Below are positions 13,998-53,532 of a stretch of DNA of 64,000 nt, piece by piece. Both the position numbers and the translations under genes were made by a program. Each line of letters opens with the position of its first letter. The stretch's first letter is position 1. This DNA comes from Oligoflexia bacterium (GTDB taxonomy: Bacteria > Bdellovibrionota > Bdellovibrionia > JABDDW01), in NCBI GenBank assembly GCA_043732305.1, contig JAYTHU010000031.1, forward strand, positions 1-64,000, given 5' to 3'. The notes under the pieces are model-generated. The model searched no databases, was not told the DNA's origin, and saw nothing but the letters and a program-made list of their open reading frames with translations.

Positions 13998-14009
13998 TTA
14001 AACTTTGCA
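13994..14009 (+). promoter_or_regulatory. Putative sigma54 -24/-12 promoter
   Basis: CGGCTTA-AACT-TTGCA (GG-N10-GC) just upstream of the exported protein gene. Confidence 0.5.
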
Positions 14010-14022
14010 ATTAATGGGATCA

Positions 14023-15135
14023 ATGAAGTACAAAATCGATCAAAATAACTCGAGGCTTGCCATATTGATTTTGGCGACATTCACGATGACAGCCTTTGTC
14101 ATTGCGATGCCTGTTTTTGCTCATGCCGGCGACGTCATCAACTGCACGTTTAAATTAAACAAAATCCGTTCGACAGAAGCCATTGATACCGTCGGAAAAA
14201 CCGATATTGCCAATGGTGGCGAGATTATGATGGAGAAGCCCTTCGCACTAAAATCGTGGAGAAACGCGAACCTTTGGAAACAATTCAAAGCGTTCCCTGA
14301 ACTATCTGTGCTGAGAGGAAATCAAGCCGTCGAAAGCCAACGTCAGTCGGAAAAAGGATTTTCACCCCCATTCCACACAGCTTCGGGTGCTCGAATTTTA
14401 TTGAGAAGAGCAATCCTCACCGAACTTGCCTATTTTCATCCCGATCAAGTGTCAGAGCACTTCTTCACTTCAAAACTCCTTAGCCCTGAAGCCAAGGGAA
14501 TATATCTAAAGCAAATTGAACTCAAACAACTGCTCAGTGAATTAAAAAGACATCCTGCGCTTGGTGCACACAACATTGAACTGCTAATGAGAACACAAGA
14601 CACGTTAATGATTGTTGCTGGCTACTGGAGAAGTTTCGTGATTCGTAGACCCGTGGACCTTCGCGGCGAATATGAAGCGGCGAAACTCGCTAACAGTGAG
14701 CTTGAAAAAGAGACCTCAAAAATATTTGGCATTCTCTATGGTTATTTAAATCATGCCGCCGAAGCTGCAGCTACGTTCGAAAGACAAAACCGAACGTATT
14801 ATTATTCTAAGGTTTTGGAATATCTTACTCAGCTCAAACCAAGCGCATTCGCCCAAATAGCTTACGAGCGGTACAGTAAATTTAGATTAGATTCCAAAAC
14901 TGAGACGCTAGCGCAGCCACCTCACCTCAGCGATCTCCATGACATGGCAGTTAGAACACAAACGGAAATTGAAAATCGTCGTGGCGAAGATTTGGCGAAA
15001 CGCGAAAAAGTCAGAATGAATATGATATTGATTCAAAACCCACAAGCTGTGACCTCAGGAAATAAGGCGACCCTCACGGCCGTTTCTAGAGAGACCGGCG
15101 ATACTCCCCGCCCACTTCAAAAAGACAGTGAGTGA
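14023..15135 (+). CDS. Hypothetical exported helical protein; single Cys in C-x3-L just after the signal peptide
   Basis: Long ORF, h-region ending [15 protein letters not shown]; exact start uncertain. Confidence 0.7.
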
Positions 15136-23477: not shown

Positions 23478-24308
23478 TTATTGACATCTAAAAAATGCGC
23501 AGGCGTTTCCGCTAAATTGTCCAAGAGTTCCTGAAGCCACACTGGTTTGACCATTGATGGTGTTGACAGAAGTTTGATTGGTAAACCCAATGGTTCCGCT
23601 CAAAGTGTAGTTCACTCCGGATCCTGATAAAGTTCCTATGACGGTGATTGTTCCTTCGCCATCGCTGAACACTAAATTAACTTTATTTCCCTGCACATAA
23701 GAACCTTGAGTCTGCAATCCAACATTGACAGGAATTGCAGGAACCACACCACCGCTAGGATCAGCAGTTCCGGTCAATGAATCCCAGAAGCCCATAGTAA
23801 TACCACCGCTTGAAGGAGCCACTTGCTGATTAGACGCGACAACAGCAGAGAGTGTCTGATTGCTAGTGAAAACCATTGGCGCAGAGCTAGATCCACTAGG
23901 ATTTGTGCCCATGGTCATTCCCACAACGCAATTTGAACCGTTGCAAGGAATCTGAGTGTAGCTTGCGGGTGTTCCAAAAATTGCAGAATTCCAATTGGTG
24001 TCCGTCGTTGTTGATGTGGCGCCAATAGCACCCCACGCCCAGTCAGTGCTCAAGAAATAGCGGGAGACGTCGTTGCTGTTCATACTTAAGCCAGGAGCCA
24101 TGCCAGAGGTGACCTGACCCGAACTGGTGTTCACTTGCGCCCATATAGAACTGCTCACTCCACTGGGAGCGGCTGGGACACTGACGCCACCACGGATGTT
24201 ATTACCGTTGGTGCGACTGGTTGAATTTTTGTCTTTATTGTTGCTACCGCAGGCCGTGAATAGGAGCGTTGCTGCAACCGATAATGCTACTAATAAATTG
24301 TTTCTCAT
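23478..24308 (-). CDS. Ser/Thr/Gly-rich lipoprotein ending CAFFRCQ
   Basis: Lipobox LFTA-C after MRNNLL..; GGAG RBS. Confidence 0.8.
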   Translation of the reverse strand: MRNNLLVALSVAATLLFTACGSNNKDKNSTSRTNGNNIRGGVSVPAAPSGVSSSIWAQVNTSSGQVTSGMAPGLSMNSNDVSRYFLSTDWAWGAIGATSTTTDTNWNSAIFGTPASYTQIPCNGSNCVVGMTMGTNPSGSSSAPMVFTSNQTLSAVVASNQQVAPSSGGITMGFWDSLTGTADPSGGVVPAIPVNVGLQTQGSYVQGNKVNLVFSDGEGTITVIGTLSGSGVNYTLSGTIGFTNQTSVNTINGQTSVASGTLGQFSGNACAFFRCQ

Positions 24309-24487
24309 AAATCTCCACTTTGAAAATAGGTCCATCCGTATTCTCTCAAGTTTATGTATTACAAGGGTTGGGCCATGGTTTTGGTCCTAGGGAATGACAG
24401 GTTGACTATAGGATTGATTGTCAGGAGTGCAGTTCGAATAGGCCTTGAGTCGTCAGACAACTGTCTAATTTTTAGCCAAGTCGGTTT

Positions 24488-26329
24488 TTACCGAGGTGCC
24501 AGTAATGACTCGATCCTATTCACGGTGAATTTCTCCAGCCCCGGTTTGTCTTGCCATTTCTTGTCTGCAAGAATCTCGATGATTATCTCTCGTGCTTGGT
24601 TCTTAGTGAGATTTGGTCCACTCCCAAACGACACTTGTGTCAGCATTTTAAACAGAATAATTTGAGCTAAAGAAAACTTCAAATTCTTTGAAGAATCATG
24701 GGGTGCAAAAAATACGGTTGGAGCAGCGTGAATTTGAAAAGAATAATTCTCTTTTTGAACCACCAACGTTAGCTCATCCAAATAAGATATCATCTCCCTC
24801 AACACCGCGACGGGAATCCTCTTATTTTCAAGGTAACTATCTAATAGTTCAAGTCTGGCAGCTGGACTGACCGGTAATTTCAAAACCTCCATCATTCTAT
24901 CGAAATGAATTTGTTCTTCCGAACCCATTTTAAATCGAGGACGAGGTCTCTTATTGGAAACCTGTTGTAGGATTTTCTCAACGGCGAACATTTCTAACTT
25001 AGGAACATTCGACCATTTTTTAGTGTTAAAAAGTTTGCGGGCTATTTCCTGGGCCTCTTCCTTTGACAACGCTCCGTGCGCTCCGGGGATCAAACGCTTC
25101 AGCATCTTAAACAAAATCACATCACTATACCCAAATTTAGAATTGGAACGGGAATGGGGACTTTTGATTGAATAGAATATTGATTCTGGAAACGCAATAG
25201 ACTGCATAGCTTCATTATCCTTGGCAATTGAGTCTTTATTCAAAACAGGAATCATTTTCATAAACACCATGACCGGCACGCTCGTAGATTCGACATAACT
25301 TTCCAAAACCCCGAGAACACTTTCTAGACTTGCGGGGGATTCCAAAAGAAAAAGCATGTGATCATAAATTTTTTGGTCCTCGGGGTCCAATTGAGACGAG
25401 CGTGGTCCATCTATGCCATTCTCACTGTCCATCAAAAAATCGAGATCGATACCTTGTCGAGACGCCGAGATAACCGATTTCATAATTTCAATATCGCTGA
25501 CTCCGTCGGCCAGTTCCTTGACCTCACTGACTTTCCCGATAATTGGCGAAAGAGCGTCGATCATCATCACGACCTGCATTTGGAGAGCTTTTAGTTTCTG
25601 TATCTCTTTAGTGAAAGTCGCGACAAAAACATTTTCGCCCATTGAATTTTGAGTTGCTACCTCCAGAACGCTTTTTCGTTCGGCAATCGTGCTCTGTGTG
25701 ACCCGAAGCAAAATGTATTCTTCATTCAATTGGCGAGATATTTCCGGAAATTCAATTTTACACAGGGCAATACTTTGCTTGCAGCCTTTAATTTTATTAG
25801 CAATCTCGGTAACGGAAACTTTATAATTCTTGCTCAGCCCAAGAAAATGGCTCACCGAAGATGGCTTACCGACTGTTAGTTTTTTCTGAAGCTCCGTAGT
25901 CAAAGCGGAAACATTCTGCATCCCAAAAAATACGGTACGAACCTTCTCCAAGCTTTCTTTATTTCGGTTCAAGGACAGGCCCGTCTGCTGCTTTGAAACT
26001 TCCAAAACCAAATCAAAAATCGGCTGATCCCAATCTTGCATAAATTCATTAGCCAGATACTGAGGATGAGAAAATCGAGAAGATTCGAGTTTGGACCTAA
26101 GACCTTCCACCAAAAAATGTGCAGCTTTCTGGATTTCAGAGTCATCCAGACTTTTTATCGTATGTTCGAACTCTGGCAAAGACGAACCGGACTTCAGAGT
26201 TTCAAGGATGGATGCGCACCTGTCCCCGAGAGACATTTCTTTTGGCGGCTGGGCACGGTGCCCTTCAATCTCAGAAGCCTCAACAAGGCCGGGGATTAAA
26301 AAGATAAAAACTAACATAAGAAACTTCAT
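24488..26329 (-). CDS. Exported paralogue 1: shared coiled-coil (TelA-like) N-domain plus two tandem C-terminal modules
   Basis: Signal peptide, RCASIL, FSHPQY, GCKQSIALC, LNEEY, QGIDLDFL; internal duplication aa ~314-458 / 468-613. Confidence 0.8.
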   Translation of the reverse strand: MKFLMLVFIFLIPGLVEASEIEGHRAQPPKEMSLGDRCASILETLKSGSSLPEFEHTIKSLDDSEIQKAAHFLVEGLRSKLESSRFSHPQYLANEFMQDWDQPIFDLVLEVSKQQTGLSLNRNKESLEKVRTVFFGMQNVSALTTELQKKLTVGKPSSVSHFLGLSKNYKVSVTEIANKIKGCKQSIALCKIEFPEISRQLNEEYILLRVTQSTIAERKSVLEVATQNSMGENVFVATFTKEIQKLKALQMQVVMMIDALSPIIGKVSEVKELADGVSDIEIMKSVISASRQGIDLDFLMDSENGIDGPRSSQLDPEDQKIYDHMLFLLESPASLESVLGVLESYVESTSVPVMVFMKMIPVLNKDSIAKDNEAMQSIAFPESIFYSIKSPHSRSNSKFGYSDVILFKMLKRLIPGAHGALSKEEAQEIARKLFNTKKWSNVPKLEMFAVEKILQQVSNKRPRPRFKMGSEEQIHFDRMMEVLKLPVSPAARLELLDSYLENKRIPVAVLREMISYLDELTLVVQKENYSFQIHAAPTVFFAPHDSSKNLKFSLAQIILFKMLTQVSFGSGPNLTKNQAREIIIEILADKKWQDKPGLEKFTVNRIESLLAPR

Positions 26330-26335
26330 TTTTCC

Positions 26336-27727
26336 TTACTCCGAAACCAAAGTGTGCAAATGACTGATCACGTATTTTTCCAGACCACCGTAATAAGACC
26401 ACGTTGAATCGGTCAAAATTTCCCCGGCAATGACATGAGCATCCTCTTTAGATATTTTTCTCAAGTCGCTTTGAGTGACACGGCTTAATATTTTTGTAAT
26501 GACAATGATTTTAAGCGGAAACTTCGAATTGACATTCATGAAATTATGGGGAAGGAACTCGGTCGCCGGGTAAACTATTTTTTGGATAAACTGATCATCT
26601 CTCCAACTCGAATCATCAAATTTATAGATAATAGGTACAATCTCTCTCAGCACATCAATAGAGATAGGAGTGCTATTTGCATAATCCTCGAGAATATTCA
26701 GAGCAATCCTGGAAGACGTCGGTGAGCTAAGAAGGTAAATCATATGATCGAGGATTTGTCTATCACCGAGGCTGATTTTTACCAGACTTAAAGAAGGATT
26801 TAATTTAGAATCTCCTTCCACGAGAAAATCCAGATCCAACCCTTGCGAAGAGGCACTGATCACTGATTTTACAATTTCACTCTCGTTCACGGCATCCGCC
26901 CGCTCTTTAATTTCCCGAACTTTTCCTAAGATCTGAGAAAGTCCACCAGTCATAGCGGAAACTTGCAACTGTTGAATCCCCAGCTTTTCTAGCTCTCGTT
27001 TGAAAGACTCAACTAAGATTTTCTCACTCGTCTGTTCCATAGCCTCCCTTAAAATTCGTTCTCGCTCGACCATTAAACTGGAGGTAGCTTGCAGCAAAAT
27101 ATATTCTTCATTCAAATCTTGAACAATGGCGGAAAATTTAATTTTGCAAAGACCAATGGTTTTCCGGCACCCGCTAATTTTCTTAGCGAGTACCAAAACC
27201 TTAAGTTTATAGTCCGGTGATAACCAACGGCTGAGCTTGAAAACCGACGGCTTTCCCTCAGCTAAAATATTCTGTAACTTTCCCACAAGCAATCCGATGC
27301 TTTGGGTTCCATAAAGGGCGGCGTTGGCTCTCGCCATACTTTCTTTATACCGAGAAACATCAAGACCGATTTTCTGCTTTGAAATCGCCAGTACAAGATC
27401 AAAAACTGACTGATTCCAGTTCGCGAGGACTTCACTGGCTAAATGCTGCGGATGAGAGAAACGTGAAGTGGAGATTTTTTCTTTTACTGCCATCACCAAT
27501 TTTGAAGCTTCTTCCCGAAGAGTGGCTTCTCCTAAATCACCCAATTTAGTTTCAAGTTCCAAAACTGTGGATCTATTTTCAAGCGCCTCTAGGACGCTGA
27601 CGCAGCGAGTATGCAGATCAGAAGACTCCTGTGTTTTTTCTTCAGATAAAGATCCATGGAGTTCGGATGCCCTAGCGAAATTAGTCATACAAAAAATAAA
27701 AACTATAATAAATAATAAATATTTCAT
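26336..27727 (-). CDS. Exported paralogue 2: shared N-domain plus one C-terminal module
   Basis: Signal peptide, RCVSVL, FSHPQH, GCRKTIGLC, LNEEY, QGLDLDFL. Confidence 0.8.
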   Translation of the reverse strand: MKYLLFIIVFIFCMTNFARASELHGSLSEEKTQESSDLHTRCVSVLEALENRSTVLELETKLGDLGEATLREEASKLVMAVKEKISTSRFSHPQHLASEVLANWNQSVFDLVLAISKQKIGLDVSRYKESMARANAALYGTQSIGLLVGKLQNILAEGKPSVFKLSRWLSPDYKLKVLVLAKKISGCRKTIGLCKIKFSAIVQDLNEEYILLQATSSLMVERERILREAMEQTSEKILVESFKRELEKLGIQQLQVSAMTGGLSQILGKVREIKERADAVNESEIVKSVISASSQGLDLDFLVEGDSKLNPSLSLVKISLGDRQILDHMIYLLSSPTSSRIALNILEDYANSTPISIDVLREIVPIIYKFDDSSWRDDQFIQKIVYPATEFLPHNFMNVNSKFPLKIIVITKILSRVTQSDLRKISKEDAHVIAGEILTDSTWSYYGGLEKYVISHLHTLVSE

Positions 27728-29133
27728 TTTATAACTCCACGCACAGAGGCAATTCCCGAGTTCTGAAGAGCAACTTTTCGGAGGCCACAGCCAGACTTCA
27801 AGGCAAAAAACTCCCCGTTCGAATACAACTGGGTCTCAAGCTTTTTATAAAGCTCCAGATGCCCGTCTGAAGTGAGACTCATTTTTTTCGCCATCTGGCT
27901 GAGAGTTTTTGCGGAGAGCGTTTCACCTTGAAACAAAATCAATTTTTTTGATGCCATGTAAGGAATGACAAATTTCAAATAATACTTATAGTTTTGGGAA
28001 CCGTCGAAAACTCTTCTCACCTTATAAATTTCTTGTTGTGGGGCGGATTTTGCATAGATAAATATTGATCCCGTGAAAGGTTTAACCGCTTTGAGAAGAA
28101 ACAAAAGGCTTTCGAGAGAAATGAATTTCATTACTTCAATCTCTGCGAGAATCATGTCTCCTATTTCATCGTTAGAAAGTTCCGAATGAATAGCGCGCGC
28201 CACCTTCAATTTGAACTGCTCCTGTTGATCCAAATCCGTGTCTGTACGACTCGGAGACAAAGTCACGTCGTTTTCACCGATTAAAAATCCTAAATCAAAA
28301 CCTTGAGATGCCGCTTCCATCACCGTTTTATGAGTAGATCCTGTTTGAAAAATATCAGCCTGAGACATGACGTGGGAGATCTTGTCGATGGTCTCAGCCA
28401 GCTTTTCAGTTTTAATTTGCAATAAAGTTTTCTGCATGCCAAGCCTTTCGAGCTCAGTCTCAAGAATCCTTAAAAGCCCTGGGTGAGAAGTTATTTTCTT
28501 GGCCGCGACAAGAATCTTCATCTCATCAGAAAATGTCATTTTTACGGCGTTGAGAAAAATCAGATCGGAATTGATTTGCTTTGATATGGAAGGCAAATCC
28601 AGTTGGCATTGGGCGAGAGATTTTTTACACAGGGCCGCTTTGCGGGCTAGGTCTTTGATTTTATTTGAATGGGTGCTTTTCAACATCAAAAATCTCCGCC
28701 CGCGGGAAATGGCCTTCTGAAGTTCATCAAGAACTATGGTCACATTCCTTGATCCGTAAAGGAGATTTTTCGCATTGGTCAGAGCCGGAGCTTCAAGCAG
28801 TTGCCCCGCCCCAAGATAACGTTTAGAAATAGAATTCAGAAGTTCATTCAAGTCCGAGTGATTTTCGGCCATACCCTCGCGCAAGACGTGCACTGGCTGG
28901 GAAAGGGAATGATCCGTCAGACTTTTTTCTAAGTGAGAAATGAGATCTCGACTCTCCGCTCCAATCTTCTCGTCGCTCAACGGATGAAATTCTTTTTCCA
29001 AATCGTGATTTCTATTTTGGCTCAGATTTTCAAGTAAGAGTCCACAGCGAAGAGAAAGATCACCGGCATTTAAAAACGGAGAGAATAGAAAGACTAGTTC
29101 TAGAAAAAGTAGACCTATAATTTTCGATCTCAT
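27724..29133 (-). CDS. Exported paralogue 3
   Basis: Signal peptide, RCGLLL, LSQPVH, LCKKSLAQC, QGFDLGFL; ATGA overlaps on both sides. Confidence 0.8.
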   Translation of the reverse strand: MRSKIIGLLFLELVFLFSPFLNAGDLSLRCGLLLENLSQNRNHDLEKEFHPLSDEKIGAESRDLISHLEKSLTDHSLSQPVHVLREGMAENHSDLNELLNSISKRYLGAGQLLEAPALTNAKNLLYGSRNVTIVLDELQKAISRGRRFLMLKSTHSNKIKDLARKAALCKKSLAQCQLDLPSISKQINSDLIFLNAVKMTFSDEMKILVAAKKITSHPGLLRILETELERLGMQKTLLQIKTEKLAETIDKISHVMSQADIFQTGSTHKTVMEAASQGFDLGFLIGENDVTLSPSRTDTDLDQQEQFKLKVARAIHSELSNDEIGDMILAEIEVMKFISLESLLFLLKAVKPFTGSIFIYAKSAPQQEIYKVRRVFDGSQNYKYYLKFVIPYMASKKLILFQGETLSAKTLSQMAKKMSLTSDGHLELYKKLETQLYSNGEFFALKSGCGLRKVALQNSGIASVRGVIK

Positions 29134-30986
29134 TCCGTCCTCAAAATGGCTTCGCTTACAAGCTGATCCACAACTTCACTTATCTTTGCGTCTCGCTCTG
29201 GATCAAGATGAACCCCTCTAGAAAGAGCTGTTCTTTCTATCACTTTCTTAAGATTTTCCCTCGCTGTAGTTTCAAATTCAGAAATGTTATCTTGCCCAAG
29301 GATTTGAACATGGCGCAAACCCACTACCGCAAAAAATATACTCGCATTGAATGCCTGTTTTTCGTGACTCATTCCTATCGCATTATAAATACTGTCAGGA
29401 ATTTGCGCGTATGTGTCCACCCAATTCACAGATTGGTTCTTGCGAGAAAAAAGAAGCGTCGACAGAGAAAGGTACTGCGCAATGGTGATGCGACGATTTT
29501 CCTTGAACAAATGAGTCCAAATTCTCGAGGCAATACGGCTTGCAGAAATCTGACTCAGATAGGTTGTTTCCATTTCTTTTTTAATTCCCACGAGATAATC
29601 AGAAACACCTAAATCAACCAAAGGCTCAAGCAGTCCTCGAAGTGACTGATTCAATGCGAGGCCCAATTTGTCATTTTTATGATGGGACAAAACATAACCG
29701 ATGAACTTTGGAATTTTCGATGCGAAAACAGGATCTTCAAAAAGAAGGTTGAATCCCTGAAAGAGAACTCTTTGATCCGTGTTTTCGAGAAGATTAGTGG
29801 CCATTGTGCCGAATAAATGACTAGCCAAAAGTTCATCATCTTCACTGTTGGCAGCAAACTTTTCCACTCTAAGCATGGTTTCAGCAACCAAACGTGTATC
29901 TAACCACTTCACAGAAAGAAGAGCAGTGAGTTGTAAAAAATCTGCATTTTCCTGGAGCTTTTCCACTGCATGACCATAAGCTGCAGATGTGAGGGGCAAT
30001 GATTTTAAAAGATTCCATGACTCTTCTTTTATACCCCAAATACTTACACTTTTTTGTTCGCGCCTATGCCACTCCATTTTCCATTCGATAGGCTCCACGT
30101 CATCTTCTCGCGGCACTAGAAGAGGCTGGAGATCCACGGGCACTTTCAGTGATTGGGCTTTGATAATCAAACGGTGGCTAAACTCAACCCTGGATTCCCG
30201 AGCGTTACTGCCCACTTGATCGGCGGTAATAATTATTTTTTCTAAAGTCTCACTCATAATCAAAAAATAGGACTCAAGCTTAGCTATCTCTAGCCTTTTG
30301 TTATTTAGCGCCGTTATCACGGAACTTTGAGGGAAAGTAGATGGCAACCAGTCAGATAGATTTTCCAAAAGGAGATCTAAAATTTTAACTTGATCTTGCA
30401 GTAACGACTCCACATTTTTGACCGTCGCGAACTCCTGATTGAGATTTTCAATAATTGTTTTAAGCTCTTTTGAACAATGGTTGATCGATACCCGACACTC
30501 TCTCACTCGAGCGACTTGTTTGAGAAGTTCCTGCTTTTTTTTCTCGATGTTGAATCGAGCGCGACCGTATTGATCGATCCTTACATCTAAACTATTCAAA
30601 AGTTTCTGTTCGCTGTCCACACCAAAGAGAAGCGTTTCTAATTCTTCTAACTTTTTAGGCTTAGAGTTTGTGTTTTGAGAAACTTGTCTTTGGCTCACTG
30701 CTCGTACCATTTCTAAAAGAGGTTCAAAATGATCTTGAAGCCGAGTTTGAATTTGAAAATACGGACTAGAGAATTTTTCTTTTTCTAATGCAAAAACTAA
30801 ATCCTTCACTAATTTTTCATAGACTTGTTTCTGGTCCACAGGTTGGGATGCCTTGAATTCCAAAACTTTTTCAAGCTCAAGGATACATGGTTGTGCATTG
30901 ATAAAGGTGGGAGAAGAAGTAACTGCTGAAAAAGCGTTGCCACCTAGAAAAAAAACGGGAAACACTAAAGATAAAAACACTTTCAT
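29130..30986 (-). CDS. Exported paralogue 4
   Basis: Signal peptide (NAFSA), PCILEL, FSSPYF, KPKKLEELETLLFG, ECRVSINHC, LNQEF. Confidence 0.8.
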   Translation of the reverse strand: MKVFLSLVFPVFFLGGNAFSAVTSSPTFINAQPCILELEKVLEFKASQPVDQKQVYEKLVKDLVFALEKEKFSSPYFQIQTRLQDHFEPLLEMVRAVSQRQVSQNTNSKPKKLEELETLLFGVDSEQKLLNSLDVRIDQYGRARFNIEKKKQELLKQVARVRECRVSINHCSKELKTIIENLNQEFATVKNVESLLQDQVKILDLLLENLSDWLPSTFPQSSVITALNNKRLEIAKLESYFLIMSETLEKIIITADQVGSNARESRVEFSHRLIIKAQSLKVPVDLQPLLVPREDDVEPIEWKMEWHRREQKSVSIWGIKEESWNLLKSLPLTSAAYGHAVEKLQENADFLQLTALLSVKWLDTRLVAETMLRVEKFAANSEDDELLASHLFGTMATNLLENTDQRVLFQGFNLLFEDPVFASKIPKFIGYVLSHHKNDKLGLALNQSLRGLLEPLVDLGVSDYLVGIKKEMETTYLSQISASRIASRIWTHLFKENRRITIAQYLSLSTLLFSRKNQSVNWVDTYAQIPDSIYNAIGMSHEKQAFNASIFFAVVGLRHVQILGQDNISEFETTARENLKKVIERTALSRGVHLDPERDAKISEVVDQLVSEAILRTE

Positions 30987-32899
30987 TAATTTAACTGCCC
31001 CACCGTTCTATTCAGGAGATTGTCTATGTATTTTTCGACTCCCAGCTGATAGGATTGACTGGATCTCTTGTGACCGGGCATATGCTGAAGCACGATTCTC
31101 AACAGACGAGCATGCGCACGCTTTCTAAAATTAGGAATATTATCCATGCTCAGAATTTGAATCTTACTCAGTGCTTTTACGGCAAAAAATATTATTGGAT
31201 TGAGCCTGACGTAACCATCCCCTTGGAATGGCCCATAAAATTCTTTGGGTAGAACTTTAAGTTCATCGTTGCTCCAACCTCCCGGACAGAGATCCCAGAC
31301 AGAGGTTGCTCCGTGATTTACCGATACTTCTAAAAGTTTGAAATAATCTTCTGCAACCAAACGAGTCTTAGGATCGTTCAAATAATCCCACATCAGCTTG
31401 ACTTCAAGATCTCGCGAGTCAGTGCCTTCTCCCGCAAGCTCGCCCATCCTCTGCATAAAATTAAAATCAACCATCACCGTGGGTCCCAGCATGAGGGCTT
31501 GTGTGATAATCAGGCGGGCTCGATCCGCGGTGCCCACTGGGTGCAGTTCACCCAGGAAAAGTGGAATCTGCCCGAGGACATCTCCCTGGAAAAGCCCACT
31601 GAACCGGCTGTGAATCCAATCATTCTCCATACGGTGATTGAGACGTGACATAAGAAAGTCCACGGCAAGTTTTCCTCGAGCCTTAAATATCACGTCTTTG
31701 GATTTGAGAAAGCCTTCGATTGCACGAACAATCTGCAGAAGGTCAGGTGCTCCGCCAATGTTTAAGGAAAATAATTCTATTTTCCTCATGAGACTTTCCG
31801 TCTGACCTAATTCATCAGCCAATATTTTAAATTGCCGGCTGTTTAAGGGAAGCTTCAATAAAACCTGCCACGAAGGGTATTTATCATCCCAAACAGCACT
31901 CTCCATGTTGTCTTCGCTAGCGGCTATGTTCGCTGGCTTGTCGGGTCCCGGTAAAAACTGGTCTAAATTTATATTTATATCCCAATAAGTTGATTTCAGT
32001 TCATCCCGCTCTTTCAAGATAAAATTGAGATCAATGGCCGGTGACTCCGAACCAGCGCGGATGATAGCCCTTTGAATCCCTTCTATTTGGGTTGAGCCTG
32101 CGTGGCTTGCGGACTGATCTGCTCCGATCATGATTTTTTCAATGGCGTCAGCCATCAATGTGAAATAACTCACCGATTGACCGAGCTCTTGAATCTTATT
32201 TGAAATAGCTTTCTTGACAGAATCACTTCCCGATTTCACAGGCAACCAGTCATTGGTATTCGAGAGGACAAGTTCGAGAATTTTCGTTTCATCTTCCAAA
32301 ACACTGAGCACGGTTTTTACAATTTTATATTCGGCGTTCATTTCTGAAAGCAGAACGGTCACATCAGTAGTGCATTTCTTAATGGCAGCACGGCATGCTT
32401 TCAATTTGTTCCCGGCATCTACAACCGCTCTTACCCTATCGGCTATTTTCTCGCCCGTTGTTTTGAATGAAATCAGCCCCCCCTTCCGCTTAGCACTGAG
32501 GGTATTATTTAATTGCTCGAGTAATTTCAACTCCGTGTTTGTTCCAAAAAGAAGGGTTTCCAATTCTTCCAGAGCCTTGGGCTTTGTCGTCGAACTATTA
32601 GAAATTTGTCGGAGACTCACTTCCAGCGCAAGTTCAATGATGGGTTTTAGATATTCGCTCAAACTATTTTGAATGACAAAATAACTACTGGAAAAAAAAT
32701 CACTTTTGAGAGCCGCTTCGAGCTGCTTTTGTAAAATAGAATATCTAATCTCGATCGACTCACCATTGTTTTTGACGATGCTTTCAAGAGACGCTTTGCA
32801 TGGGGGCCGGCTGAGCTCGGCACTTTTAGCGCAGGAAATCCAAAGGCACCCTGCCAGAAATGCCATTGCCAAAATAAAAGGCTTTTTGTCCCCGCTCAA
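30986..32899 (-). CDS. Exported paralogue 5 (possible lipobox LAGC)
   Basis: PCKASL, FSSSYF, KPKALEELETLLFG, ACRAAIKKC, MNAEY; TAATG overlap with the next gene. Confidence 0.8.
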   Translation of the reverse strand: MSGDKKPFILAMAFLAGCLWISCAKSAELSRPPCKASLESIVKNNGESIEIRYSILQKQLEAALKSDFFSSSYFVIQNSLSEYLKPIIELALEVSLRQISNSSTTKPKALEELETLLFGTNTELKLLEQLNNTLSAKRKGGLISFKTTGEKIADRVRAVVDAGNKLKACRAAIKKCTTDVTVLLSEMNAEYKIVKTVLSVLEDETKILELVLSNTNDWLPVKSGSDSVKKAISNKIQELGQSVSYFTLMADAIEKIMIGADQSASHAGSTQIEGIQRAIIRAGSESPAIDLNFILKERDELKSTYWDININLDQFLPGPDKPANIAASEDNMESAVWDDKYPSWQVLLKLPLNSRQFKILADELGQTESLMRKIELFSLNIGGAPDLLQIVRAIEGFLKSKDVIFKARGKLAVDFLMSRLNHRMENDWIHSRFSGLFQGDVLGQIPLFLGELHPVGTADRARLIITQALMLGPTVMVDFNFMQRMGELAGEGTDSRDLEVKLMWDYLNDPKTRLVAEDYFKLLEVSVNHGATSVWDLCPGGWSNDELKVLPKEFYGPFQGDGYVRLNPIIFFAVKALSKIQILSMDNIPNFRKRAHARLLRIVLQHMPGHKRSSQSYQLGVEKYIDNLLNRTVGQLN

Positions 32900-32916
32900 T
32901 TCTTCCCACCCTGATC

Positions 32917-34812
32917 TTATAATTTAGTTTTTGCTATATTTTCGAGCTCTGAAGTGCAGTCCGCTCCATCCATGGTTCCGCCCACACTACGACTCACTAA
33001 ATTTTGAGCTTCAATGGCCGCAGAATTGAGACGGCCCATCGCGATAAAACTCTTACTTGCTTCTATTTCCATGCGGGCTTTTTCAGAGATAATAAAGTCG
33101 GCCGTTTCCTTGATTGTCTCGGCGCTGAAGTATGCCGTGGTATTGATCTCAATGATCATGTCATTGGCGCGCGCGACTTCAACTCGCAATTGTTTCAAAC
33201 CTGCCTCTTGAGTGGCTCGCACCGCTTTGTTTGTACCTACGGCCATTTCTAAAGTGGAGTTGGTGTTTTTGATCATTTCCAAGGTGGTAAAAATAGGCAT
33301 GCCATTTCTCACGTTAGCGATGTCTTCTCTTACAAAATAAATAGTGTCTAGCTGTTTGGCCATAGCTTCACCTATGAGTTCCATAGCTGAGGCCTGACTC
33401 AAACCCGCATTGAGACGGTTTCTGAGCTTCTGGCCCACATATGAAATCACGGCTTTCTCATCTTCAAAACGTCCATTGAGATGAAATTCTTCAACGACTC
33501 TGGCGATTTCATCGTCGACGAGTTTCCCGAGAGCTACTTTCATTTTCAAATCTTGGAGGTATCCAGACATCTCATGAAGAGTCGTGATGATTTGCACGCC
33601 ACTTTCCTTCAATGTTTTAGAGTTGCTCAGCAATACATTGTCGACACTCGTGATGCCTTGGCGGTGACTCAACAGTGCCAAACGATCTTTCTTAGGTTTA
33701 ACGGCGGAAGTCAATTTTCGTTTCACGTAGCCTGGATTAGGAGCTGCCGAAAGTTTTCCATGCCATCGTTCACGTATCGTGGATTTCCCCACTTCATGCC
33801 CCATGCTCTGAAGAAGGTAAGACAAGTCCTTGATGTTTTGAAGAGATTTTAATTGGGTGTCGTTGATAGCAATATATTGTTTCGAGTTGCGATCTAAAAT
33901 CTTATTGTTATTCAAGAAGCGTGTGGCCTGCTCGGAAGAAGCACTCAACTCACTTTCTAACGTTTGCATATTTTCTTGGCGGATTTGCGTTCGCCCCTCG
34001 GGAGATAATGTTTTTTCAATAAGTTCTAGAGCCAGCTCCTTAGCTTTTTTAGTGAGAGCGTCTGCGGAAACTCTGCTCATACGAACTTCAAGAGGCTTGG
34101 TTTCGCCCTCACCATTTTTATAATCACCAAGCAAGATTGTTCGAGTTTGATTTCGAGCGTAGAAAATTTCATCCACGCCATCACGTCTGCGAGAAGCGGC
34201 GTCTATCTCCTCGATTTCAAAAAGAATGCCGTCTCCGTTGGACAAAATATCTTTCGCATACTTCAAGAGACTAGCAGCAGGAATTTGCTGAGTGAGTCCT
34301 TGCCGAAGCACATCAAAATACATTTTTAAATTTACTAGAGAATCCGCATTTAATTTTCCCGGAGCAGTGGTCGTCACTAAAGTCACGAGATCTCTTAAAC
34401 TGGGATCAGATGTCAATTGAGAGATATCAAAGGAACCAAGAGTCGCCAGAATCTCAAGTCTGATTTGGTTGACGTCAATGACTTTTGAATCTTTGGTTTC
34501 TTGAGCCACAATTGTTTGCAGGGCGGTGCTTACTGCAGGAAGTTTGTCACCAATCACGGCGATGGAAGATATCGCTTCGGGACTAAGTTTGTATTGAGTT
34601 TTTCCACTCTTAAATCTTTCTTGCAGCCGTCGAGTGATTTCCGCAATCATGCTAGTTTGCACTACCTCAGTTTGCATTGCCTCCAATTGCCCGTGTTTAT
34701 AGCTTGGCAGCTGAGTTGTAGTCACCTGACCGCCGGCAAAAGCAAGACTGCTCACCAATAAAAGGCTCAATGATTTTCCAAGAAGTTTGAGAAAAAAATT
34801 ATTCTTTTGCAT
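32917..34812 (-). CDS. Exported protein with a C-terminal TelA/toxic-anion-resistance-like coiled-coil domain
   Basis: Signal peptide (SLAFA-GG); C-half collinear by eye with the TelA pattern; only Cys in terminal DCTSEL. Confidence 0.65.
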   Translation of the reverse strand: MQKNNFFLKLLGKSLSLLLVSSLAFAGGQVTTTQLPSYKHGQLEAMQTEVVQTSMIAEITRRLQERFKSGKTQYKLSPEAISSIAVIGDKLPAVSTALQTIVAQETKDSKVIDVNQIRLEILATLGSFDISQLTSDPSLRDLVTLVTTTAPGKLNADSLVNLKMYFDVLRQGLTQQIPAASLLKYAKDILSNGDGILFEIEEIDAASRRRDGVDEIFYARNQTRTILLGDYKNGEGETKPLEVRMSRVSADALTKKAKELALELIEKTLSPEGRTQIRQENMQTLESELSASSEQATRFLNNNKILDRNSKQYIAINDTQLKSLQNIKDLSYLLQSMGHEVGKSTIRERWHGKLSAAPNPGYVKRKLTSAVKPKKDRLALLSHRQGITSVDNVLLSNSKTLKESGVQIITTLHEMSGYLQDLKMKVALGKLVDDEIARVVEEFHLNGRFEDEKAVISYVGQKLRNRLNAGLSQASAMELIGEAMAKQLDTIYFVREDIANVRNGMPIFTTLEMIKNTNSTLEMAVGTNKAVRATQEAGLKQLRVEVARANDMIIEINTTAYFSAETIKETADFIISEKARMEIEASKSFIAMGRLNSAAIEAQNLVSRSVGGTMDGADCTSELENIAKTKL

Positions 34813-34897
34813 ACTAGAAATCCCCTCCATAAAAGTACTTCATCCATCTTAACGCAATGCGTAAATAAATTTAAATTGTTTCTGCTAACCGCCACAC

Positions 34898-34913
34898 TGC
34901 AATTTCTAAGCCC
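34898..34913 (-). promoter_or_regulatory. Putative sigma54 -24/-12 promoter for the leftward six-gene operon
   Basis: Minus strand GGGCTTA-GAAA-TTGCA (GG-N10-GC). Confidence 0.5.
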
Positions 34914-34914
34914 A

Positions 34915-34930
34915 CGGAACGCAACTTGCA
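34915..34930 (+). promoter_or_regulatory. Putative sigma54 -24/-12 promoter for the rightward two-gene operon
   Basis: CGGAACG-CAAC-TTGCA (GG-N10-GC). Confidence 0.55.
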
Positions 34931-34942
34931 GTTGTTAATTTT

Positions 34943-36844
34943 ATGACCTTATTTTTTTTAAACACAGGCGGGTTCAATGATCATCGCCGTGGAAAAAGAA
35001 CTCGACCCTACCCGAAAAGCGGGAATTTTTTTCAGGAGAAAAAAAGCGGAGCCATTCTATTCGTTTTACTAACTTCGCTATGTTCGTTTCTCGTAACTGG
35101 TGCAAGTCAGGCTCAAGAAGTCACCTCATTAACCATCAGTGATGCCTGTCAGGCTATCTTGAAAACCCTAAAGGCAACGTCCAACCCGCATGAAAAAGAC
35201 TCCGTCAATTACACTCCTATCAATGATCAGCAAATCGTGGATGGAGGAAAATCAATATCCAGCGTGCTTGCTGCCGCCCTGAGGGAAGATTTTCTCTCAA
35301 GTCCCAAATACATCATGCACGAACATCTCACAGAATTTTTGGAACCTGCCATGGATTTGGCTAGAGAAGTGAGCGCAAGGCAATTGGTCGGCCAAACCAG
35401 AGAAAAACCAAAAAGCATTCTAGAGATAGAAACTCATCTTTATGGAAATAAAAGTTTAACGGCGAAGATTGAGGAAGCTGAACTGGCTCTCGACAAGCTT
35501 CAGAAAAAAAGTATTTTTCGCAAAAAAGCGACAGAGGAGGTATTTAAAATTGCGAATGAAATTTTATCCTGTCGCACTGCCATTCAATCTTGCAAGCTTG
35601 ATATCAAAGGGACTCTCATTCAACTGAACCACGAGTACCGCCTGTCCCATGCTGTTGAACTTATTTTGACCGATCACTTAAAAATCCTCGAGAATCTTCA
35701 AGGACGTCACACCGAAACATCAATTCAGACAGTGATAGAAATTAAAAAAGCGGAGTTGAATAGACTGCTGGCGATTTTCAAAGCGGTTTCTACGCAGATT
35801 GAATCAGTCATTGAAGTCGGACATACCGTGGTGAAAGATGCGGACCAGCTTTCATCCGATAGAATTTCGCAACTCGTGATCAATGCCGCCAAGCAAAGTC
35901 CTTCCTTAGATTTGACGTATCTAAATCCGGAGACTGAAGAAGAAGTACAAGAAAAACTTGATCCCGGAGTGATCTTCAAAGATCCCGCGACGGCGGCTCT
36001 GCAAAAACTGATTGACCTCACAACTTCCGATATAGGCATACGCGAAACCCTATTGAATAAAATTTATCCTCAGATCTACACACCCTCTGGATACTCTTGG
36101 ATGGTGAGGTACAAAACCCGGAAAGCCCTTGATCGAATAAAAAATCAAATTAACATTGGCGGTAAAATCAACATCTACCTTCTTCCATCAGTGATGGAGA
36201 TTCTTGTGGAATCTTTGGAAACTCTTGATGAGCCAGCACTTTTTGCGATCTTGTTAGACCCGGACATTGACCTGCCTGGGTCTCTGCCACAGCTTTTTTC
36301 AGCAATCACTCAGCACCCTAAGGCAAAGAAAATACAAAACATTTTGCCCAGTTTTTTAGCCGGCAAAACCAGTTGGACAAGGAGCCGTGATTTTAGTGAT
36401 CAGGTGACGGAGATTTCGAATTACTCCATCGGAGATCGGTCAAAACTTGATTCACTGGAGATTCTCATACGTAAATCGACGACCATATCACAAGACGAGT
36501 TTCTGCTTTTGGCAGCGAAAACTCCTTCTAACGTTCCCTGGGGCCTCCCAACCGATGTTTACCTTAAAGGAAAACTCACCGCCTATGGTTTCGCGAAGCG
36601 AGATCTGATGGCAATACACATCAAGATAGAATTTAATATCATTTTTGATGCTCTCGAAAAAGTCTCAATCAGAGATATTGAGTCAAAACAAAATTGGGAA
36701 AGGAAGGTCATTGGAATACTCACCACCCGGTTAAGGGCAGCCTATCCAGATGACAATTTTCCTAAAGAGGTGACGTTGGTTACGGCTTTGGACAATTTGC
36801 TCTTGAGAGCCATGCAATATTCCAGCAAAAGGTGTTACGAGTGA
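34943..36844 (+). CDS. Exported paralogue 6 (divergently transcribed)
   Basis: h-region ending ASQA, ACQAIL, FLSSPKY, EVSARQ, KPKSILEIETHLYG, SCRTAIQSC, LNHEY, SPSLDLTYL. Confidence 0.8.
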   Translation: MTLFFLNTGGFNDHRRGKRTRPYPKSGNFFQEKKSGAILFVLLTSLCSFLVTGASQAQEVTSLTISDACQAILKTLKATSNPHEKDSVNYTPINDQQIVDGGKSISSVLAAALREDFLSSPKYIMHEHLTEFLEPAMDLAREVSARQLVGQTREKPKSILEIETHLYGNKSLTAKIEEAELALDKLQKKSIFRKKATEEVFKIANEILSCRTAIQSCKLDIKGTLIQLNHEYRLSHAVELILTDHLKILENLQGRHTETSIQTVIEIKKAELNRLLAIFKAVSTQIESVIEVGHTVVKDADQLSSDRISQLVINAAKQSPSLDLTYLNPETEEEVQEKLDPGVIFKDPATAALQKLIDLTTSDIGIRETLLNKIYPQIYTPSGYSWMVRYKTRKALDRIKNQINIGGKINIYLLPSVMEILVESLETLDEPALFAILLDPDIDLPGSLPQLFSAITQHPKAKKIQNILPSFLAGKTSWTRSRDFSDQVTEISNYSIGDRSKLDSLEILIRKSTTISQDEFLLLAAKTPSNVPWGLPTDVYLKGKLTAYGFAKRDLMAIHIKIEFNIIFDALEKVSIRDIESKQNWERKVIGILTTRLRAAYPDDNFPKEVTLVTALDNLLLRAMQYSSKRCYE

Positions 36845-39783
36845 AACCGAAATTTTCTGCTTCCACATTTCTAATTTTCGATTTTTTAATCTTCGCAACT
36901 CTTTTAAGCTTCGGCTTATGTTCAAGCTTAGGCTTTGGCGCCGAGCTTTTACGTTTCCCTTTCCAAGACGGAAGAAAAATTCTGGTGACTCAGGGTGATT
37001 CGGGCGTTCACGTTTCTTATGTCAGAAAAATAGATTCTTCGAATACAATCAGCAGCGCAGGCAAAGAAGTGGAAATAGAATTTCTCACTTTGCCAGAGCT
37101 AACGGGTTTTTCAGTCTTTAATAATTCCGACGTTTCAAATCACATTCCGAAAGAAATCAAAGCTTATAAAGTTGTTCAATCCAAAAAGTCGAACTTTGAG
37201 TTTAAAAACTGGTTGATCCTATCGGATAAAACCCATGGCTATTTTATACGGCAACATAGTTTTTCTGGAAATAGCAAAATCCCTCTGGTGGTTTTTAAAT
37301 TCAAAATGCCAAGCGACGTCAAAATGATTTCATCAAGTTATGGGATGGGACCGGAAGGATCGCGATTTCTATATTTTATTTCTGTCGATGGAAAAACAGC
37401 CAAAACTATGGTTTTTAGTCCAGAAGAGGGAGACCAACCACTCAAATTAATTCCTCAATTTGTAGATCTTGGAAATATTCAGGAGCCGGTTTTCCAAATT
37501 GTTGGCGATGAAATCGTTTGGAAAGAACGATATCTGAAAAAATATAATTTCGACCTTCCTGAAATCAAAGACATTAAAACAGGGAATTCAAAAAACAATC
37601 CCATGGGTGATATTGAGAATTCTCAGGCGAATTTGCAAAACACCGCCCGCATGGCTCATGAAGCTGCCACGGAATTATCCAAACCTGCGAACCAAAGAAT
37701 GAAATCCGCAGAACGGACCCAGAATTTCAATCATTCTCTTGCCACACCTGATGCTGATGTTGAATACAAAGGCCTTCATTACAAAATTGAAGAGTCACTT
37801 GAAGGAGTCGAAATTGTCAGGCTCAAAGATCTTAAAAGCCTCACTGTAAGCAAAGGAAGCTATAACTCAACTCATATTTTAGATGGCGGAATACTGAAAT
37901 TTTCGGATATCTCTCGAGAAATATCTCTAGATCACTTTGATGCCGAATGTGCCTTCATGCCCACTGGAAACAATCCCCAAGAAGTAAAGTTCATGGAAGG
38001 AACTTATGAAAACTTTAGAAAGACCGGATCAATAAATCTCGTTCTTCCTGATTCGCGAAAAGAACTGGTCAGACAGGCGGTAAAACGCATGCTCGGTGAA
38101 AAGAAAAACAGCCTGCTTCTGACTGAAGGTTTTGGAGATCGAAAGTTCATTGTTCAAAATATAGTTCAGGCCTTGCCACCCACCTGGCGCGTGCTTACGC
38201 TTTCACCGGGACCACTCTCTAAAGACATCAACTACTCGGGAAAAATTCAGGAAAACGTTTCCCATATTTTGGAAGCGGCAAAGACGACGCCTCTGGTTTT
38301 GGTGGCCGAAGACTTTCATATCTACAAAGGTTTGGGATCTACTGGTGGCAATCAAACTGATGTGCTTGAACTGATCCGTGATGCGGTCTTGAGTGGCCAA
38401 CTGCGGTTGATTGCACTCTCCGGAGAGGAATTTAACGAGCGTGTTCATGATCCTGCTTGGGACCGAGCCCTTTTTAAAATTCCCCTTACTGATTTGAGTC
38501 AGGTAGAAGTTTTTGAATTCTTAAAAAATCTTTGGGCGGTAGATGGAAAAGGACTTCCACTTCCGAGCGCCAAAACTCTAAATAAAATAATCGATGTTGC
38601 GGGGAAATTCAATGTGACTGAAGAAGACCCCGCCCGCTCCGCCGATTTCATGGCTGCATACATTTCAGAATTGAGCGAGACAACGTCTCCATCCATCGAC
38701 GTGAACGATGAAGTTTCTCTTTTGAAATCAGCTAAAGATTTCTATCGACTAGATCCTTCACTGATTGATCCAAAAATTTTATTCTCTAAAGTTCAGAACT
38801 TTATTCCTAAGGTTCGCGATTACGGTCTCATGGGGCATGATCATGTGATTGCAGCGGCAAAAAAAATGATTGCAAACTCCCTTTCTGGCGCATCACTTGA
38901 TCCCGGGCCTGGATTTATTATGTACGTGGATGGTCCACCCGGCGTTGGAAAAACCGAAATGGCTAAGAGTTTTGCTTCGGCCATGGATTGGAACATCAAA
39001 AGAATTGTCATGCACCAGGCAATGACCTCAGACACTCTGCTTGAAAATCTTTATCGCGCACTGAAAAAAAATCCACACTCTCTGATTTTTCTCGACGAGA
39101 TAGAAAAAGCATCTCCCGACACTCTCAAGGGACTTCTTCAAACCATGGACAATGAGTACTTCAACGTGGATATGGAGATTGGCGACAAACAAAAACGCAC
39201 GGTGCGCGCGTCTACTAAACATGCGAAGTTTATGCTCGCTGGAAATGTACTGGGCGAAGCAATCTCCCATTGGTGGCATGATCATCCGGAATATATTAAC
39301 TCTCTCACACCACCTCATATGCAATTCATAAAGGACATGGGCGGCGAAGAACGTTTGCGGCAACTATTGATTCAAGAAGGTCTTCCGTCCCCGCTCATTG
39401 ATAGGGCCTACGTGACTTATGCTTTTCCGCCGACACGAGAACAGATAAAAGGTTTCCTCACTTTTAAGATCAACCTGATGATAAAAATATTTGAAAAAAA
39501 CAATGATCGAAAATTAGTCTTCACTGGTCTTGAAAAATACATTGAAGATGTGACTGATTTTGCTATTCGGGAAAAGCTTGGACCAAGATCCATTTTGCGC
39601 GCCACCACGGGCTCTAATGGAGATTTCGCAAGCATTCTGGCAAACCTTGCAAGCACGTACGCTGCGGCACCGGGGAGTCATGACGGGCCGGTGAAGCTTC
39701 GATTCGATGAAAAAAGAACGGATCCCACCCACGACTGCCAAAATATTTTGGCAGAAATGGAAAATGAGATCCGAGAAAACTAA
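36841..39783 (+). CDS. ClpA/ClpV-like two-ring AAA+ ATPase with N-terminal signal sequence, degenerate D1 and intact D2
   Basis: D2 GPPGVGKTE (from 38932) and IFLDEIEKA; D1 remnants KNSLLLTEGFGDRK, AEDFH, DPAWDR; GTGA overlap with paralogue 6; terminal DCQNIL. Confidence 0.8.
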   Translation: MKPKFSASTFLIFDFLIFATLLSFGLCSSLGFGAELLRFPFQDGRKILVTQGDSGVHVSYVRKIDSSNTISSAGKEVEIEFLTLPELTGFSVFNNSDVSNHIPKEIKAYKVVQSKKSNFEFKNWLILSDKTHGYFIRQHSFSGNSKIPLVVFKFKMPSDVKMISSSYGMGPEGSRFLYFISVDGKTAKTMVFSPEEGDQPLKLIPQFVDLGNIQEPVFQIVGDEIVWKERYLKKYNFDLPEIKDIKTGNSKNNPMGDIENSQANLQNTARMAHEAATELSKPANQRMKSAERTQNFNHSLATPDADVEYKGLHYKIEESLEGVEIVRLKDLKSLTVSKGSYNSTHILDGGILKFSDISREISLDHFDAECAFMPTGNNPQEVKFMEGTYENFRKTGSINLVLPDSRKELVRQAVKRMLGEKKNSLLLTEGFGDRKFIVQNIVQALPPTWRVLTLSPGPLSKDINYSGKIQENVSHILEAAKTTPLVLVAEDFHIYKGLGSTGGNQTDVLELIRDAVLSGQLRLIALSGEEFNERVHDPAWDRALFKIPLTDLSQVEVFEFLKNLWAVDGKGLPLPSAKTLNKIIDVAGKFNVTEEDPARSADFMAAYISELSETTSPSIDVNDEVSLLKSAKDFYRLDPSLIDPKILFSKVQNFIPKVRDYGLMGHDHVIAAAKKMIANSLSGASLDPGPGFIMYVDGPPGVGKTEMAKSFASAMDWNIKRIVMHQAMTSDTLLENLYRALKKNPHSLIFLDEIEKASPDTLKGLLQTMDNEYFNVDMEIGDKQKRTVRASTKHAKFMLAGNVLGEAISHWWHDHPEYINSLTPPHMQFIKDMGGEERLRQLLIQEGLPSPLIDRAYVTYAFPPTREQIKGFLTFKINLMIKIFEKNNDRKLVFTGLEKYIEDVTDFAIREKLGPRSILRATTGSNGDFASILANLASTYAAAPGSHDGPVKLRFDEKRTDPTHDCQNILAEMENEIREN

Positions 39784-52598: not shown

Positions 52599-53180
52599 TT
52601 AAAAAATAAATACACGGTAAAAAACATATTTGTAGAATTCGTCAAACGTGGTCACCCAAAGTTTTAAACCTTGAGTGCGGTCACTCGGCACCACGTACGG
52701 AATGATTGTCACAACCGGTGGAAACACATGCTCAAAAGTCTGCAGCGCACGATTCATATGATAATCAGACGTGATCAAGAGAATACTCTTACAACTCAAA
52801 GCTTCCACCAAAGCTAAACTCTGTTGGGCGTTTCCGGCAGTAGAATTAGAACGTCGTTCTAAAATAACTTTTTCCAAATCTATTTCCGGAGAAAAAACTA
52901 CTTCAGGAATCATATCCATCAGTGTCGAGTGTTGATGAACGCCAGAAATAATAAGTCTTTTGATTTGTCTGCGGCTCATTAGCGCGAGTCCTTCACGGAT
53001 CCGCCCTGGCCCCCCAGTAAGAACGACACCACAATCAGCGCGACTATTGTAAGAACGCGGGAGAGTGCCTCTAATGATCTCTGAGTACTCGTTCATTCCA
53101 AAAATCGGAATAACAATCCACAAAAAGATCAATAGATAGATGAGATATTTAAATAGCCGCGATAATTTCGATTTCAACAT
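52599..53180 (-). CDS. YdcF/ElyC (DUF218) family protein
   Basis: VVLTGG..RI, LIISG, SNSTAGNA, LITSDYHMNRA. Confidence 0.88.
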   Translation of the reverse strand: MLKSKLSRLFKYLIYLLIFLWIVIPIFGMNEYSEIIRGTLPRSYNSRADCGVVLTGGPGRIREGLALMSRRQIKRLIISGVHQHSTLMDMIPEVVFSPEIDLEKVILERRSNSTAGNAQQSLALVEALSCKSILLITSDYHMNRALQTFEHVFPPVVTIIPYVVPSDRTQGLKLWVTTFDEFYKYVFYRVFIF

Positions 53181-53532
53181 CAACCCCTTTAGGGAGAGCC
53201 GAAACTTCAACTGTGCTTCGCGCTGGTGGATTTTCTGTAAAATACCCACCGTAAACTTCATTGACCGCAGCAAAGTCACTCATGTTTTTTAGAAATATCG
53301 TGGTCTTGACGACATTTTTAAAATCGCCTCCAGCCTCAGTCAAAACGGCTTTAATATTTTTCATGACTAGTATGGCTTGTTCTGTGACAGTGCCTTTCAG
53401 CACTTCGTTGGTTGCAGGATCAATCGCGATTTGACCGCTACAAAATAGTAATCCATTAGAAAGCACGGCCTGACTGTAGGGGCCGACAGGAGCGGGAGCA
53501 TGAGCGGTACGAATTATTTTTTTTCCGGACAT
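53149..53532 (-). CDS. ridA: RidA family enamine/imine deaminase
   Basis: APVGPYSQA, SGQI, NEVY, PARS, VEIE; GGAGG RBS. Confidence 0.93.
   Translation of the reverse strand: MSGKKIIRTAHAPAPVGPYSQAVLSNGLLFCSGQIAIDPATNEVLKGTVTEQAILVMKNIKAVLTEAGGDFKNVVKTTIFLKNMSDFAAVNEVYGGYFTENPPARSTVEVSALPKGVDVEIEIIAAI

Follow-up and report, generated by a model that had tools for sequence, protein, structure and literature searches.

The window analysed here, a stretch of 64,000 nucleotides (nt) at the start of contig JAYTHU010000031.1 from an Oligoflexia bacterium (Bdellovibrionota; Bdellovibrionia), contains between positions 24488 and 39783 eight genes, g1 to g8, which seem to encode an undescribed set of proteins carrying N-terminal export leaders and a short cysteine-bearing tag, among them a TelA-like protein (g6) and a Clp-type ATPase (g8). 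Comparison with related genomes indicates that the conserved core is probably this TelA-Clp pair, and that the other tagged proteins would be a variable entourage. We favor, with somewhat less than even confidence, the reading that the eight proteins are cargo delivered into prey, where g6 would assemble on a membrane and g8 would remodel this assembly at the expense of prey ATP.

The class of the window was surveyed in 390 genomes, and 371 genomes of the phylum were sampled (genomes, contigs, and loci carry G, C, and L numbers, G000 being the genome that holds the window). The long form of the TelA-like protein represented by g6 occurs in six of the 390 genomes and, among the 371, in no other class. 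All six genomes also encode an ATPase of one clade, and the genomes with ATPase homologs belong to the same class as the window. In five genomes, 27, 27, 2020, 3078, and 3889 nt separate the g6-type from the g8-type gene; in G198 the pair is spread over two short contigs whose genes are ordered as in G199. The modules of G198 and G199 match that of G267, a member of another family, at 56-69% and those of their own congeners at 20-26%, suggesting that the module has moved by transfer. If the locus were an island of independent effectors, g8 would act on prey as a general unfoldase or as a drain on its ATP, and its link to g6 would reflect no more than block transfer of genes. Related leader-bearing Clp ATPases without TelA, present in seven other examined genomes and at C62:32457 of G000, and shorter leader-bearing TelA proteins without this ATPase clade fit such an island. 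However, the pair persists at about 20% identity despite changed neighbors and gene orders, and loss of the GKT motif in the first ATPase domain (D1) coincides with the long TelA form in five of five aligned cases, whereas eight of eight stand-alone ATPases keep the G-K core, so that we regard independent effectors as unlikely.

The neighbors of the pair vary, consisting of an array of the H proteins described below in G196, of a different array in G199 and G267, and of ABC1 kinases in G195 and G196. The kinases adjoining the module are tagged and leader-bearing (L009:2763-5057 in G196, L085:6766-9138 in G195), and the other array, made up of leader-bearing paralogs of ~300 amino acyl residues (aa), flanks it at L041:8105-11804 (G267) and L082:10552-11370 (G199). 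A partner of ~960-1016 aa with hydrophobic helices is encoded beside the TelA-like gene in five of five other genomes; members of this large partner family (1097-1861 aa) are also encoded without a TelA-like gene at L252:9324-13928, L250:274-6695, and L249:11454-14747.

The product of g8 is a tandem D1+D2 AAA+ protein of the Clp clade and is closest to ClpA, which is also its best match among solved structures (E 2e-47; PDB 6uqe, 1ksf). Against TIGR02639 it reaches E 1.6e-18 and 66 bits vs a cut-off of 993, and its ~350-aa N-domain has no family match. D1 has lost both GKT and DE, reading EGFGDRKF in the place of Walker A and VAEDFH in that of Walker B. The second ATPase domain (D2) keeps Walker A (GPPGVGKT), Walker B (DE), sensor-1, the Arg finger, and sensor-2, and its residues K707, D755, E756, N805, R858, and R919 are invariant in six of six aligned homologs sharing 22-24% identity. 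The GYVG pore loop of D2 is deleted in 13 of 13 aligned double-ring homologs and is kept in the ClpB of the host itself. As all 13 end with the Cys tag and leaders are present on all 11 with complete 5' ends, exported-type Clp ATPases form a wider family, with a second member in G000. This second tagged and leader-bearing Clp ATPase (C62:32457-35108, L126) is encoded beside valS, its D1 motifs are intact, and its D2 pore loop is absent; G001 has such an ATPase in a similar context.

For g6, the relationship to TelA is remote and covers residues ~250-615. Pfam TelA (PF05816) gives no match at E<=1 in any of the eight proteins, and a genome-wide search found zero ordinary TelA proteins. A class-wide TelA search yields proteins that bear leaders and score near the cut-off, and g6 matches one of these at E 4e-9; leader-bearing proteins above the Pfam TelA cut-off lie two steps from g6. 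With a TelA-like profile built without g6, the protein is found at E 9.9e-8, the reversed-profile control being blank. Alignment of the g6 family with TelA by hhalign gives 60-76%, yet only 2% when the three most divergent members are used. A structure model of g6 with a predicted local distance difference test (pLDDT) score of 55 is too poor to settle the fold, and no solved TelA structure was found for comparison. The N-domain of g6 occurs as a stand-alone protein of 224 aa in G277 (E 2e-10), preceded by the large partner, and g6 therefore looks like a fusion of such a domain with TelA. Compared with TelA/KlaB/YaaN (PF05816), g6 shares a remotely homologous helical core but differs in its leader, its additional N-domain, and its tag, as well as in lying below Pfam detection and in having no XpaC- or SPFH-like neighbor (XpaC likeness probability <1%), although ordinary TelA loci of the same class do have such neighbors. 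Loss of xpaC with telA intact shifts phospholipid domains, according to a conference abstract (PMC6811118). Among the shorter leader-bearing TelA proteins, one is encoded at L044:3289-12407 (G376) together with a DUF7932 protein and a tagged single-ring ClpB-D2 ATPase that has kept its pore loop.

A first-pass annotation of the window had proposed seven TelA-like proteins, of which g6 alone retains this assignment, by transitive profile search. The products of g1 to g5 and g7 are indeed six clear paralogs (pairwise E 1e-99 to 2e-3), related across an N-terminal domain of ~280 aa that we call H; g6 stands outside this family. Against the TelA-like profile each of the six gives E of at least 15, and in the profile-profile comparison with TelA hhalign yields 0.1%, and thus they seem to constitute an unnamed family and no TelA subunits. 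H proteins combine a conserved three-helix N-domain, in which a C-x6-C pair is kept in 16 of 17 members, with variable C-domains; the H domain of g7 is modeled as a three-helix bundle that retrieves generic bundle matches in a structure search. The H-array profile matches just two of the 390 class genomes, the second being G196, and the array is absent from the stretches read around the TelA-Clp pair in G195, G199, and G267. As the array accompanies only two of the six pairs, the pair does not need it. The ATPase co-occurs with the TelA-like protein in six of six genomes and with the paralog family in G196, so that the proposal withstands the refutation set for it, an ATPase never found together with the paralog family. 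The paralog array accompanies the pair in only one other genome. That annotation further envisaged seven helical subunits that co-polymerize in the manner of a sheath or of ESCRT-III and are dismantled by the dedicated ATPase. With H proteins that are not TelA-like, an array limited to two of six genomes, and C-domains that vary freely among paralogs (8-34% identity), we give such a polymer little credence.

The eight reading frames are arranged as first described, six leftward and two rightward from a short divergent region (Table 1), and are joined across gaps of 6 nt and 17 nt or by overlaps, of which two are ATGA, one is TAATG, and one is GTGA. A promoter scan of the 130-nt divergent region did no better than chance. 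Indel-free matches to the stretch are found in contigs from two sediment runs; these runs are possibly the source of this DNA. Downstream of g1, at 23478-24335, lies a Ser/Thr/Gly-rich lipoprotein-like gene without tag, and further leader-bearing open reading frames (ORFs) with the C-x3-L pattern are located at 14005-15135, 52599-53279, and 58090-58752 of the window.

Table 1. Genes and intergenic region of the locus (window positions).
Feature	Position	Strand	Description
g1	24488..26329	-	613 aa; leader, tag C38, H domain 25415-26242 with C-x6-C, two copies of a ~135-aa C-terminal unit
g2	26336..27727	-	463 aa; leader, tag C42, H domain 26798-27628, one g1-type C unit
g3	27724..29133	-	469 aa; leader, tag C30, H domain 28258-29070, unrelated C domain
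g4	29130..30986	-	618 aa; leader, tag C34, H domain 30102-30911, C domain common to g4 and g5
g5	30986..32899	-	637 aa, TTG start; leader, tag C34, H domain 31994-32824, g4-like C domain
g6	32917..34812	-	631 aa (gene-caller start 34812); leader, ~200-aa helical N-domain (~34066-34668), TelA-like domain (~32986-34083), C-terminal Cys tag 32935-32958
Divergent intergenic region	34813..34942		130 nt, AT-rich; promoters presumed
g7	34943..36844	+	633 aa; leader with long n-region, tag C69, H domain 35123-35938, unrelated C domain
g8	36841..39783	+	980 aa (gene-caller start 36841; 983 aa from GTG at 36832); leader, ~350-aa N-domain, degenerate D1 (~38000-38750), D2 (~38810-39680), C-terminal tag 39736-39759

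Export-type N-termini had been claimed for all eight proteins and are borne out: each has one N-terminal hydrophobic stretch (15-mer hydropathy 1.8-2.6), and none has a later hydrophobic segment (no further 19-mer above 1.6). Most leaders consist of a positive n-region and a short h-region with Ala at the predicted cleavage site. Those of g7 and g8 are atypical, the n-region of g7 comprising 36 residues with one ordinary start codon only, and g5 carries in addition a lipobox-like match. Sec-type export of the eight proteins is predicted from leaders judged by hydropathy and pattern. If the N-termini were instead uncleaved anchors that hold the proteins at the cytoplasmic side of the predator membrane, the puzzle of the ATP supply would vanish, and the way in which leaders were called and the atypical leaders of g7 and g8 would be compatible with this. 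A positive n-region followed by a short h-region, however, leads to N-in, C-out topology, Ala is found at most predicted cleavage sites, and conservation of the C-x6-C pair suggests an oxidising environment, which makes anchoring at the cytoplasmic face very improbable.

The C-x3-L motif is present in all eight proteins, following the leader in g1 to g5 and g7 and ending g6 and g8, as first noted, but it is spread genome-wide and does not mark one machine. In G000, for which a crude leader classifier was used, 8.9% of terminal windows but 0.5% of internal ones contain C-x3-L-x2-[LIVMF] in a set of 585 proteins with leaders. Counted by protein, the pattern occurs in 56 of the 752 leader-bearing and in 20 of the 1177 cytoplasmic-class proteins; 30 of 61 tagged proteins have no second cysteine. 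At the G196 locus, C-x2-F-Y is shared by nine of 12 ORFs, which encode unrelated proteins (kinase, ATPase, H proteins); it is found once among the 752 leader-bearing proteins of G000. The tag thus exceeds chance, is genome-wide rather than locus-specific, and differs in wording by lineage; a single wording over unrelated proteins of one lineage is what would be expected of a signal with one receptor. Other tagged and leader-bearing proteins of G000 include an AAA ATPase (C31:77479-78639, L121), a SelO AMPylase (C51:27474-29279, L125), an adenosine deaminase (C25:36649-37782, L120), and a DnaJ-domain protein (C120:9116-10048, L098). Three adjacent tagged and leader-bearing genes (C50:1270-12292, L124) encode a PrkA-type AAA protein, a 1804-aa Walker A protein, and a SpoVR-DUF444-VWA fusion, possibly a cytoplasmic stress module in an exported version.

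A Sec leader by itself leads to the periplasm, and the proteins might act in the periplasm or envelope of the predator itself, either because ATP is supplied locally or because the ATPase serves as a nucleotide-binding scaffold. Members of the TelA family have been linked to envelope stress, and retention of C-x6-C in nearly all H proteins is as expected for a disulfide. In contrast, the catalytic residues of D2 are invariant, the tag is shared with SelO, adenosine deaminase, DnaJ, PrkA, and a weak Leu/Phe-transferase match, whose substrates are cytoplasmic, and the patchy, fast-diverging distribution rather resembles that of conflict genes. On balance a machine of the predator periplasm seems unlikely to us.

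Delivery into prey, the reading we favor, might proceed in five steps. After Sec export to the oxidising periplasm, the C-x6-C of H domains would close while the lone tag cysteine stays free, and a lineage-specific export or delivery factor would then read the Cys-bearing amphipathic helix; three secretin genes are present in G000, and secretins are possible exits for the tagged proteins. In the prey cytoplasm, where XpaC, its usual partner, would be missing, g6 would oligomerize at the inner membrane and disturb or reshape it. A g8 hexamer powered by D2 alone would assemble or strip g6 without bulk unfolding; because the threading loop is absent, g8 would work on g6 and not on bulk protein. 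The six H proteins might be accessory cargo, their conserved helical part serving as carrier for exchangeable C-terminal domains. More generally, the terminal Cys-helix tag of Bdellovibrionia, reworded per lineage, could be the address for a route that places ATP-driven machines in the prey cytoplasm, with the TelA-Clp pair as one injected machine, i.e., a membrane-remodelling polymer and its motor, and the H family as a new polymorphic carrier; this wider proposal is possible but doubtful.

Cytosol-type Pfam families are found above cut-off in nine of 42 tagged vs none of 19 untagged proteins (p 0.046), namely DnaJ, ABC1 kinase, adenosine deaminase, AAA, PrkA, DUF444/SpoVR, SelO, Clp, and ATP-grasp. 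This enrichment speaks for delivery into prey but is weak: when sub-cut-off matches are counted the difference becomes 11 of 42 vs one of 19 (p 0.083), and the sample is small, its 42 tagged proteins having been picked by the analyst from 61 and three of them belonging to one operon. Several points weigh against delivery. The tagged set also includes periplasm-type matches (penicillin-binding protein, WG repeat, PLD), and five other TelA-like orthologs are without terminal tag, an absence that the model leaves unexplained. The ATPase clade (support 93/91) is not firm, because g8 sits on a long branch, and the large partner of ~960-1016 aa was not found in G000. Both the interaction of g6 with g8 and delivery are predictions from sequence, and we know of no route into the prey cytoplasm for Sec-exported Bdellovibrio proteins. 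As to the delivery into prey already suggested in the first-pass annotation, the host does belong to a class with members assigned to Bdellovibrionales or Bdellovibrionaceae, and this uncultured family is presumably predatory, as judged solely from class membership.

To our knowledge no ATP-driven remodeller works beyond the bacterial inner membrane, and the locus bears on the question of how Bdellovibrio-type predators reach the prey cytoplasm. Both questions become testable through the TelA-Clp pair, which is conserved and presumably exported, and through the tag on dozens of cytosol-type proteins, which is short and can be mutated, and the pair offers a handle on TelA-family function. As had been supposed, no account of the arrangement was found, nor of exported TelA, of exported Clp ATPases in these bacteria, or of the Cys tag, in literature that covers subscription journals thinly and in part as excerpts.

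Among known systems, ClpA and other class I Hsp100 proteins share with g8 the D1+D2 layout and the lack of a middle domain, whereas g8 has a leader, a new N-domain, degenerate D1 Walker motifs, no GYVG, a C-terminal Cys tag, and a longer pre-sensor-1 hairpin in which no IGF/L motif is seen. ClpV/TssH of type VI secretion (T6SS), proposed earlier as an analog, resembles g8 in being a Clp-type ATPase with a genetic link to a polymer, there the TssB-TssC sheath and here a presumed one, but g8 reaches only 33 bits vs a cut-off of 885 with TIGR03345, and no T6SS family match, sheath included, was found among the eight proteins. ClpV is cytoplasmic and retains both rings, and deletion of the D2 pore loop in g8 weakens the analogy. 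Secreted predatory proteins of Bdellovibrio bacteriovorus resemble the present ones in bearing signals and in being found in killed prey; those named in the accessible text are hydrolases, with no ATPase, TelA, or Cys tag mentioned there (PMC11003981). Further secreted effectors of Bdellovibrionota are described in the accessible part of another report (PMC12419801), and Bdellovibrio secretion is called largely unexplored in an excerpt of a third (PMC12622784). In the Plasmodium translocon of exported proteins (PTEX; HSP101, PTEX150, EXP2), as far as the accessible text goes, a Clp-type ATPase of a parasite likewise acts outside its own cytoplasm with helical partners (PMC7355975). A PTEX-like translocon at the predator-prey interface, whose ATPase would drive Cys-tagged cargo through a pore that the TelA-like protein would build together with either the large hydrophobic partner or the H proteins, is nonetheless an improbable reading: HSP101 has two active rings and uses pore loops of its second nucleotide-binding domain that are lost in g8 (PMC7355975, accessible text), and no sequence link of the locus proteins to EXP2 or PTEX150 was seen. 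By family, the suggested analogy to ESCRT-III/Vps4 fails, there being no PspA/Snf7 or MIT-domain Pfam match among the eight proteins. In layout, a similar case is PspA/ESCRT-III paired either with Vps4 or to a double AAA+ protein whose first domain is inactive, a helical membrane-stress protein adjoining an AAA+ protein with a dead N-terminal ring (PMC11237479, in the part accessible). PspA with this double AAA+ protein, as described in the same excerpt (PMC11237479), and ClpV with its sheath are the systems most alike in their working, but those are cytoplasmic, whereas g6 and g8 carry leaders.
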